A stretch of DNA of 64,000 bases from Escherichia coli. GTDB lineage: Bacteria > Pseudomonadota > Gammaproteobacteria > Enterobacterales > Enterobacteriaceae. Shown here in pieces: positions 46,207-47,952 of the stretch. The stretch lies in the NCBI RefSeq assembly GCF_016026235.1, contig NZ_CP065613.1. One strand, given 5' to 3'. The notes under the pieces were generated by a model that had not been told where the DNA came from, searched no databases, and saw nothing but the letters and a program-made list of their open reading frames with translations. A program made the translations under genes and the position numbers. The stretch's first letter is position 1; each line of letters begins with the position of its first letter.

Positions 46207-47170
46207 TTATGACCTCCTGCTGCGGATACCAACAGGCGCAGCGCTGGTTGTTGTCACCACACGCTGTCAGCGCCGGGACGTTTTCACACTGTGCACCTGC
46301 CGCATAGCAACGATCGCGAAAAGCGCAGCCGTCAGGCAAATGGGTGAGGTTTGGTACCGTCCCTGGAATGGCGGGTAATGGCTGGCGTGGTACTCCATGT
46401 TCTGGTGCGCATTGCAGCAAACCAATGGTATACGGATGCCGGGGATGATGGATAACGTCTGCCGTCACGCCGCTTTCAATTACGCTTCCGGCATACATCA
46501 CGTAAACGCTATCGCACAGTTGCGACACCACGGCCATATCATGGCTGATGAACAGTACCGCAGTTCCACTGGCGCGGGCTTTATGTTTAAGCAAACGCAG
46601 TACCTGCAACTGTACCGTGACGTCCAGCGCCGTAGTCGGTTCGTCGGCAATAATCAATTGCGGCTCGCAGGAAAATGCCAGCGCAATCATAACCCGCTGG
46701 CGCATACCACCTGAAAGCTCAAACGGATAGCGCGACATAACTTCCACGGCATCCGGGATTTGCATCTCTTCCAGCAGGGCAATCGCTTTAGCTCTGGCTT
46801 CCCGACGACTTATTGGTTGATGATGGCGGATTACGTCCATCATCTGAAGACCTATTCGACGTGTCGGATTAAGAGCGGTCATCGGTTCCTGAAAGATCAT
46901 CGCCACTCGTGCGCCGCGCCACTGACGAAGCTGTTTTTCCCGAGCGTTAAGAACATCTTCTCCCAGCAGTGAAATCTGCCCCCGATGTACGCAATAACTG
47001 CCCGTCGGTAGCAGACGCATAATCAGCATTGCGGTGACTGATTTACCTGAGCCGGATTCTCCCACCAGACCGACAATTTCACTGCGGTTAATCTGCAAGG
47101 ACACATTGTTGAGCGCGTGAACATCACCGTTAAAACCGGGGAAACTCAAATGCAGCTGTTGAATGTTCTG
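46199..47170 (-). pseudogene. ddpD: D,D-dipeptide ABC transporter ATP-binding protein, 5'-truncated at a deletion junction
   Basis: ABC ATPase ORF (Walker A GESGSGKS) lacking its native start: the frame is open only to a TAA at 47171-47173 and the track start is TTG at 47149. Directly abuts the dosC fragment. Confidence 0.65.
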
Positions 47171-47952
47171 TTATTCAAATTCCTGGTGTTACGCATGGTT
47201 TGATTGAAAATACCGTCGAAATCCTGAATCAGACGAGAGATATGGCCCACTTCAGCAATGCCGCTGAAATAATGTCGACCTTTATGGTTAAACCACAGGC
47301 CAAAATCAGCCTGGCTTAAAGGCAAACTACTGCCTAAATCAGAATCCAGCAGGATTTTATAGATGATATCTATTTCCCATGAAAGTATTGAGGCTATTTG
47401 CCGTTCTTTTTCTTCTTCGGCGTTTTCCAGTAACGAGAAGATACGATAGTTTTCATCTTCTTTTGAGGCACTACTGTCACTAAAGGTAAACGCGCGGGTC
47501 ATCACTTCCATAGCGATATCAATACTGTTAATCGAGAAATGGTAGACCTGAAGTTTTTCTGCGGCAGAATAATCCGAAGAGAAGATTACCGGATAGAGGA
47601 TCTTTTTCAGCACCCGAAACCCCATCTCGACAATTTCTACCGGAATTCCTATGCGGGCATGCACTTCCGCGACGGTATGCTGGATTTGTATTAGCCTTTC
47701 GACATCGTCAACCTGGGCAGAAAGCACGTTAATAATCCAGCGTTCCATCGCACTCTTCAACTGCCGCTCAACTTGTTCATTACTCAAGAATTCTTCGGCA
47801 TGCGGGTCGATGCGGACAATTCGATAAAACTCAATACTCAGATAATGAGCATGCGCAACGGCAATTTCCGCGGCTTTAGCACGAATGGGCGGATCTGCCT
47901 GTTCGACAAGCCCGGTCCACTCATCTTTCATTCTTTTAAAATACATCTCCAT
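47146..47952 (-). pseudogene. dosC: Heme/globin-coupled diguanylate cyclase DosC, N-terminal fragment only (GGDEF domain missing)
   Basis: 268-aa ORF MEMYFKRMKDEWTGLVEQADPPIRAKAAEIAVAHAHYLSIEF... recognised as the DosC sensor domain; it ends at a TGA overlapping the ddpD start instead of continuing into a GGDEF domain. Confidence 0.75.

Follow-up and report, generated by a model that had tools for sequence, protein, structure and literature searches.

In Escherichia coli K-12, the genes of the ddp-dos locus are arranged in the order ddpF-ddpD-ddpC-ddpB-ddpA-ddpX-dosP-dosC. For E. coli, the principal survey of which GGDEF/EAL genes are present is that of Povolotsky and Hengge (2016), as cited in PMC5635171. 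DosC and DosP have been linked to the control of curli and PNAG (PMC5635171), and the same paper describes DosC as frequently absent in commensal and uropathogenic isolates. Moreover, the dgcO gene (S1870) of Shigella flexneri 2457T is recorded as an allele with a 'truncating deletion, no GGDEF', which gave no c-di-GMP signal upon expression (PMC11327459). Fragments of comparable domain content have also been engineered from the homologue of Bordetella pertussis. BpeGReg266, which comprises the globin and the middle domain, bound haem and inhibited the motility of Salmonella when expressed from a plasmid, and docking onto other c-di-GMP enzymes or partners was proposed as its role; the globin domain alone, BpeGReg155, bound haem without eliciting a physiological response (PMC5549716).

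Here, we describe a further natural allele of this locus, located in a stretch of 64 kb of E. coli DNA that was analysed as a whole and is referred to as the window. On the minus strand, digH/yddW (48329-49648) is followed by an ORF of 268 aa, an ORF of 316 aa, and a pair of ORFs measuring 118 and 188 aa, respectively; after this pair, which represent ddpF, osmC is encoded on the plus strand. The features of the locus are as follows.

47166..47166, no strand: deletion junction, flanked by ddpD-derived DNA on the left and dosC-derived DNA on the right
45280..46206, minus strand: ddpF pseudogene, split by R119* into ORFs of 118 aa (45850-46206) and 188 aa (45280-45846)
46199..47166, minus strand: ddpD remnant, native codons 8-328
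47146..47952, minus strand: dosC' ORF of 268 aa, consisting of DosC codons 1-262 (47167-47952), six foreign codons and a TGA (47146-47148)
47488..47874, minus strand: globin (protoglobin-type) sensor domain, Pfam PF11563, residues 27-155, intact
47167..47415, minus strand: truncated DosC middle domain, residues 180-262, Pfam PF21118 (DosC_2nd)
47953..48328, minus strand: DNA upstream of dosC (promoter side) that has been kept between digH/yddW and dosC' and is collinear with both K-12 and FDAARGOS_943

Alignment of the window by blastn with K-12 and with the closest complete genome, FDAARGOS_943, revealed a single junction at position 47166. On its left side, window 40341-47166 corresponds to K-12 1552192-1558998 and window 43928-47166 to positions 9229-12467 of the FDAARGOS_943 locus (L001). 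On its right side, window 47166-54825 corresponds to K-12 1566354-1574000 and window 47166-51810 to L001 19823-24467. The flanks are 99.85-99.96% identical to those of FDAARGOS_943. The missing DNA amounts to 7,356 bp (K-12 1,558,998–1,566,353; NC_000913.3), and in MG1655 its ends lie within ddpD (1,558,998) and dosC (1,566,354), respectively. It comprises the last 198 codons of dosC, the genes dosP, ddpX, ddpA, ddpB and ddpC, and the first seven codons of ddpD. The annotation of this interval is alike in K-12 and FDAARGOS_943, with ddpC, ddpB, ddpA, ddpX, dosP and the 3′ part of dosC. These results bear out two proposals of an earlier reading of the same DNA (the first-pass annotation), namely that ddpC, ddpB, ddpA, ddpX and dosP separate dosC from ddpD in K-12, and that a single deletion of several kb has removed them. 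The interval given there for the junction, 47100-47200, includes the breakpoint, which can now be set at 47166; following the direction of the genes, this is 17-20 bases upstream of the overlap between a TGA and a TTG codon that is described below. Since both genes at the junction are truncated, dosC at its 3′ end and ddpD at its 5′ end, the window carries the derived state.

We found no IS element, IS end or filler base at 47166, where each base can be assigned to a parental flank. Alignment with K-12, suggested earlier as a way to look for microhomology, indicates that one base pair is shared: the single T at 47166 could stem from either parental end, a level of microhomology that chance alone often gives. 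Likewise, local alignment of ±60 nt around both parental breakpoints, in direct and in inverted orientation, revealed no homology above chance, with a score of 9 compared to 8.2 ± 1.4 in shuffled sequence. A homology-driven deletion was rejected, as the breakpoint alignment scores no better than the shuffles. Taken together, the junction very probably represents the scar of one spontaneous chromosomal deletion of 7,356 bp in a rare E. coli lineage, that of assembly GCA_900449985.1. The event would have joined dosC codon 262/263 to ddpD codon 7. As the collinear flanks meet at one point without filler, IS element or extended homology, the joining would be illegitimate, i.e., independent of both homology and IS elements. 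Judged from the junction itself, which cannot separate the two routes, end-joining at a double-strand break would be the most likely mechanism, or else a replication template switch, and the process would be RecA-independent.

The retained dosC' and ddpD' DNA does not differ at a single position from FDAARGOS_943, the closest intact relative. The deletion therefore appears to be recent relative to the flank divergence of roughly 0.1%. The lack of changes in dosC' fits a recent event, and purifying selection on the fragment is compatible with it, too. The deletion is also in keeping with a lineage in the process of losing accessory functions, as the same window contains an IS-bridged loss of about 49 kb.

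To determine how widespread the junction is, we searched 5,426 complete RefSeq E. coli genomes. None of them contains this exact junction; 4,206 carry the full 7.36-kb segment intact, and dosP is present in 5,305. This absence would be expected if the junction had arisen as an artefact when the source record was sequenced or assembled. However, the identical junction, the fusion ORF and the stop codon in ddpF recur in separately assembled SRA runs belonging to different accession series. The exact fusion protein, together with the gene order and the split ddpF gene, is present in the Logan assemblies of SRR17652784, SRR30892832 and SRR8186592. The three corresponding loci (L003-L005) align over the junction at 99.9-100% identity. 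The fusion contig of SRR17652784 is present in nine samples, and the exact fusion protein is encoded on a total of 13 contigs. GCA_900449985.1 encodes the exact 268-aa protein on its 4.56-Mb contig; this contig and the window are 100% identical over the 20.8 kb compared, and the deleted genes are likewise absent from these 20.8 kb. Moreover, one SRA assembly is distinguished by an A instead of a G at window position 51397, and at least two genotypes therefore carry the deletion. The dosC-ddpD junction is thus a genuine variant; an artefact of assembly is excluded, and the probability of one in the source record is virtually nil.

As a separate observation, the Logan contig of SRR30892832 (L004) differs from the window at eight positions, all of them inside gadB (51906-52385). 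These mismatches are most likely due to mixing of the gadA and gadB paralogues during short-read assembly rather than to real divergence.

A second explanation is that the genes were moved and not lost, the 7.4-kb segment now residing elsewhere or the junction being one end of a larger rearrangement. Our inspection covered 64 kb of the genome, and an IS-rich lineage such as this one favours rearrangements. However, both flanks retain the K-12 order and orientation around one seamless junction, and the ends of the segment are intragenic and devoid of repeats or IS ends that could mobilise it. In addition, the segment could not be traced within the window: the deleted 7.36 kb yielded no blastn match elsewhere in it, and tblastn with DdpC, DdpB, DdpA, DdpX, DosP and DosC over the 64 kb returned the known dosC' only. 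Accordingly, DosC residues beyond 253 are unmatched anywhere in the window (tblastn), dosP is absent both at the junction and throughout the 64 kb, and neither blastn nor tblastn detected the genes for the DdpX dipeptidase, the DdpA binding protein or the DdpB and DdpC permeases there. The possibility raised by the first-pass annotation that ddpXABC and dosP might persist together at another site hence found no counterpart in the window, and we regard relocation as very improbable.

Next to the deletion in the window, losses at the ddp-dos locus occur in several other strains. The B2-type arrangement (e.g., SE15), found in about a fifth of the complete genomes, resembles the window in that a large natural deletion in the osmC-digH interval affects ddp and dosC. 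In contrast to the window, ddpXABCDF and the 5′ 1.2 kb of dosC are gone in these genomes, whereas dosP and a 164-bp 3′ remnant of dosC are kept. This agrees with the frequent absence of DosC from isolates noted in PMC5635171. In the O157:H7 strain GTVSS-023 as well as in strain EC596, a single deletion removed dosP, ddpX, ddpA, ddpB and ddpC and joined a 3′-truncated dosC to the distal part of ddp, as in the window. Nevertheless, the boundaries differ from those described here. In GTVSS-023, dosC is retained over about 1,260 nt and ddpD only over its last 396 nt, the two ends sharing 3 bp of microhomology, and EC596 keeps about 833 nt of dosC, lacks ddpD altogether and harbors IS1B at the junction. 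The fusion region of GTVSS-023 (4606-6242 of locus L006) is free of IS elements and reflects an independent deletion; in EC596 the dosC'-IS1B-ddpF region spans 5242-5939 of locus L011, and its dosC breakpoint is 46 bp from that of the window. The deletions in GTVSS-023, EC596 and the B2-type strains are independent of the one in the window.

The dgcO allele of S. flexneri is comparable to dosC' as a natural allele of the E. coli/Shigella species complex in which the N-terminal part is kept and the GGDEF domain is gone, a likeness that is based on the published description. It differs in that pdeO/dosP (S1871) is still listed adjacent to it, whereas the window lost dosP and five ddp genes in one event. 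Our literature search retrieved no papers on the assembly or contig accessions. The window allele is a previously undescribed case of a well-known gene loss at a variable locus. We also considered a breakpoint hot spot near codons 262-281, based on truncated DosC proteins of 268-292 aa in one 90% cluster. We make no such claim, because the clustering favours similar lengths and many members are partial proteins at contig ends.

The arrangement in EC596, with IS1B exactly between dosC' and ddpF and a dosC breakpoint merely 46 bp away, lends some weight to a third explanation, in which an IS element inserted in dosC or ddpD, deleted the adjacent DNA and was later lost. The ISEc60-bridged deletion of about 49 kb at 28.3-29.6 kb of the window points in the same direction. 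However, an adjacent deletion mediated by an IS element would leave the element or its ends at the junction, whereas the junction at 47166 is seamless and all its bases derive from the parental flanks. Precise loss of the element afterwards would be an unexpected outcome, which renders this scenario extremely unlikely.

Several further differences from K-12 and FDAARGOS_943 were observed outside the ddp-dos locus. At window 28329-29621, an IS4-like ISEc60 element joins K-12 position 1,491,911 (ydcA/hokB side) to position 1,541,294 inside narZ. The copy is 1.3 kb in length and contains a transposase ORF of 433 aa (28349-29650, minus strand); about 49 kb of K-12 DNA, from trg through narV, narW and narY into narZ, are absent at this site. 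FDAARGOS_943 shares the left side of this junction, and a query spanning ISEc60 matches 36 places in that genome. At window 10407-10420, paaY-side DNA nearly abuts pdxI-side DNA, and about 9 kb of K-12 (1,465,062-1,474,004), comprising the ydbA pseudogene region along with IS2D and IS30C, are absent. Near yddM/fdnI, about 210 bp at window 40327-40552 align twice to K-12 (1,552,000-1,552,225 and 1,552,192 onward), which points to a small insertion or duplication compared to K-12; at the equivalent position of SE15, a frameshifted RelE/ParE-type toxin is annotated beside yddM.

FDAARGOS_943 is IS-rich and contains several pseudogenes in the region. Between maeA and sra, it harbors IS1A (L001 about 8461-9228) flanked by a duplicated 9-bp sequence, and the window contains the empty IS1 target site (43928-43936). 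Based on this filled and empty site, the window strain and FDAARGOS_943 are close relatives that differ by IS movements. In FDAARGOS_943, maeA is frameshifted (L001 6644-8342), and ddpB (13376-14398) and digH (20986-22305) contain internal stops; maeA (574-aa ORF) and digH (439 aa) are intact in the window. Given these lesions in the closest complete relative, inactivity of the ddp operon may predate the deletion and go back to the common ancestor.

At the junction, the loss from ddpD is confined to 19-20 nt, corresponding to codons 1-7; the gene is thus 5′-truncated as previously proposed, to this limited extent. The native N-terminus of DdpD reads MTQPVLDIQQLHLSF, and the corresponding stretch here is translated as ..E F E * Q N I Q Q L H L S F. 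Along with the ATG, the remnant has lost its ribosome-binding site and its translational coupling to ddpC. A TTG (47147-47149) provides the nearest in-frame start and opens the ORF of 316 aa (46199..47149); the next in-frame ATG is located past the Walker A motif. The product of the 316-aa ORF is DdpD (GenBank STL95355.1). As the first-pass annotation had noted, the TGA of the 268-aa dosC frame (47146-47148) overlaps this start codon, and the ddpD frame is open for seven codons (Q N I Q Q L H) upstream of the TTG before a TAA at 47171-47173. No Shine-Dalgarno motif precedes the TTG; the 5′ sequence is AACAGAACATTCAACAGCTGCAT.

The second ATPase gene, ddpF, is interrupted by a CGA to TGA change at 45850-45852 (G to A at 45852 on the plus strand, compared to FDAARGOS_943). 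The resulting R119* removes everything past residue 118, including the signature motif. The split is also present in the independent assemblies L003 and L004, with gene calls of 118 and 182 aa, and the stop is common to the independent assemblies that carry the dosC-ddpD deletion. Consequently, neither ATPase gene is intact, ddpD having lost its start and codons 1-7 and ddpF being interrupted by R119*. The earlier description of a ddpDF pair left without permease and binding protein holds with regard to the missing partners, but not with regard to the pair, as R119* had been overlooked.

The 268-aa product shares its residues 1-262 with the DosC protein of FDAARGOS_943 (460 aa) at 100% identity. 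The foreign tail TFNSCI (residues 263-268; 47149-47166) represents ddpD DNA read in another frame. Over residues 1-170, the product is 100% identical to the DosC globin chains of PDB entries 4zva and 4zvb, and over residues 173-262 it is 100% identical to the middle-domain chain of 4zvc; E values for these chains range from 1e-55 to 1e-102. Together with the Pfam matches, this identity settles the question, posed earlier as a possible objection, of whether the upstream ORF is dosC at all. The Pfam DosC_2nd match extends over residues 180-264, corresponding to positions 1-85 of the 110 in the model. 4zvc comprises 126 residues, of which the first 90 are kept and the last 36 are gone; the middle domain (residues 173-298) is thus incomplete and comprises native residues 173-262 only. 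The GGDEF catalytic domain of DosC occupies residues about 297-460, and no Pfam match to it was obtained in the 268-aa product, as the ORF ends at residue 268. DosC' is composed of the globin domain and some three quarters of the middle domain, the GGDEF domain being absent. The previous notion of a globin domain without its GGDEF output is correct in this respect, and has to be extended by the part of the middle domain indicated by Pfam and 4zvc. In GenBank, the exact protein is deposited as STL95358.1, a 'putative signal transduction protein'.

A scan of 45000-48400 for promoters and terminators yielded one weak sigma-70-like site, at 48220-48192 in the retained upstream region (47953..48328), and three terminator-like sites, numbers at or below the expectation from shuffles. 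The single promoter-like match is fewer than in shuffled sequence and does not constitute evidence for a promoter.

Considering the domain content and the published work, the diguanylate cyclase activity of DosC is predicted to be lost: DosC' should be unable to synthesize c-di-GMP, because the GGDEF domain is gone and the middle domain is clipped. As the phosphodiesterase DosP is absent as well, the entire O2-responsive DosC/DosP c-di-GMP module would be missing, and its reported effects on curli and PNAG (PMC5635171) would be abolished together with the pair. The gene content likewise predicts that the D-Ala-D-Ala dipeptidase DdpX and the Ddp transporter are gone. The ddpD' and ddpF' genes are presumably dead remnants that would at most be transcribed by read-through from the dosC promoter. 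In contrast to these remnants, dosC' may yield a haem-binding fragment of roughly 30 kDa, though without enzymatic output.

It is conceivable that this fragment functions as a stand-alone haem/O2 sensor through protein-protein contacts, and that the TTGA overlap couples translation of DdpD' under the dosC promoter. The promoter side of dosC is unaltered, as are codons 1-262, and neither carries any further lesion; moreover, the globin domain is complete and the dosC' stop codon overlaps the in-frame ddpD TTG. In addition, the near-equivalent engineered BpeGReg266 bound haem and inhibited motility; BpeGReg266 and BpeGReg296 have nearly the same domain content as DosC 1-262 and no cyclase domain (PMC5549716). 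The numbering of BpeGReg266 is offset from that of DosC by +2, and it is cut at nearly the same point. However, BpeGReg266 is a laboratory construct of a different protein, and the motility effect is one of this Bordetella fragment, seen when it was expressed from a plasmid in another species, Salmonella. In the window, DosP, the natural partner, is deleted, the middle domain lacks its last 36 residues, and the protein ends in a foreign tail. The GGDEF-less dgcO of S. flexneri gave no c-di-GMP signal, and the unchanged dosC' is accounted for by the recency of the event. With respect to translational coupling, the TTG is not preceded by a Shine-Dalgarno motif, and DdpD' would have nothing to power, since R119* disrupts DdpF and the permease genes have been lost. 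Hence, a working sensor of this kind appears very unlikely.

The version closest to the Bordetella work, in which DosC 1-262, expressed from the sigma-S-dependent dosC promoter, would act as a haem-binding sensor and affect motility or biofilm by docking onto c-di-GMP enzymes or other partners, is an analogy that we consider highly doubtful. If it were true, the deletion would have rewired the O2 input and not simply destroyed it.

The dosC-ddpD junction provides a clean and unique lineage marker, found in a single GenBank assembly and roughly a dozen assemblies from the SRA, and is of little significance beyond strain characterization. In the public record, the fragments are annotated as ordinary CDSs ('putative signal transduction protein' and 'DdpD') and not as pseudogenes. 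With GTVSS-023, EC596, the B2-type strains, S. flexneri and the window, the ddp-dos interval is dispensable and has been lost repeatedly in E. coli, a pattern that has already been published. Carriers of the junction are predicted to lack the O2-responsive c-di-GMP control exerted by DosC and DosP, with its reported links to curli, PNAG and swarming, as well as the salvage of D-Ala-D-Ala that depends on DdpX and the Ddp transporter.
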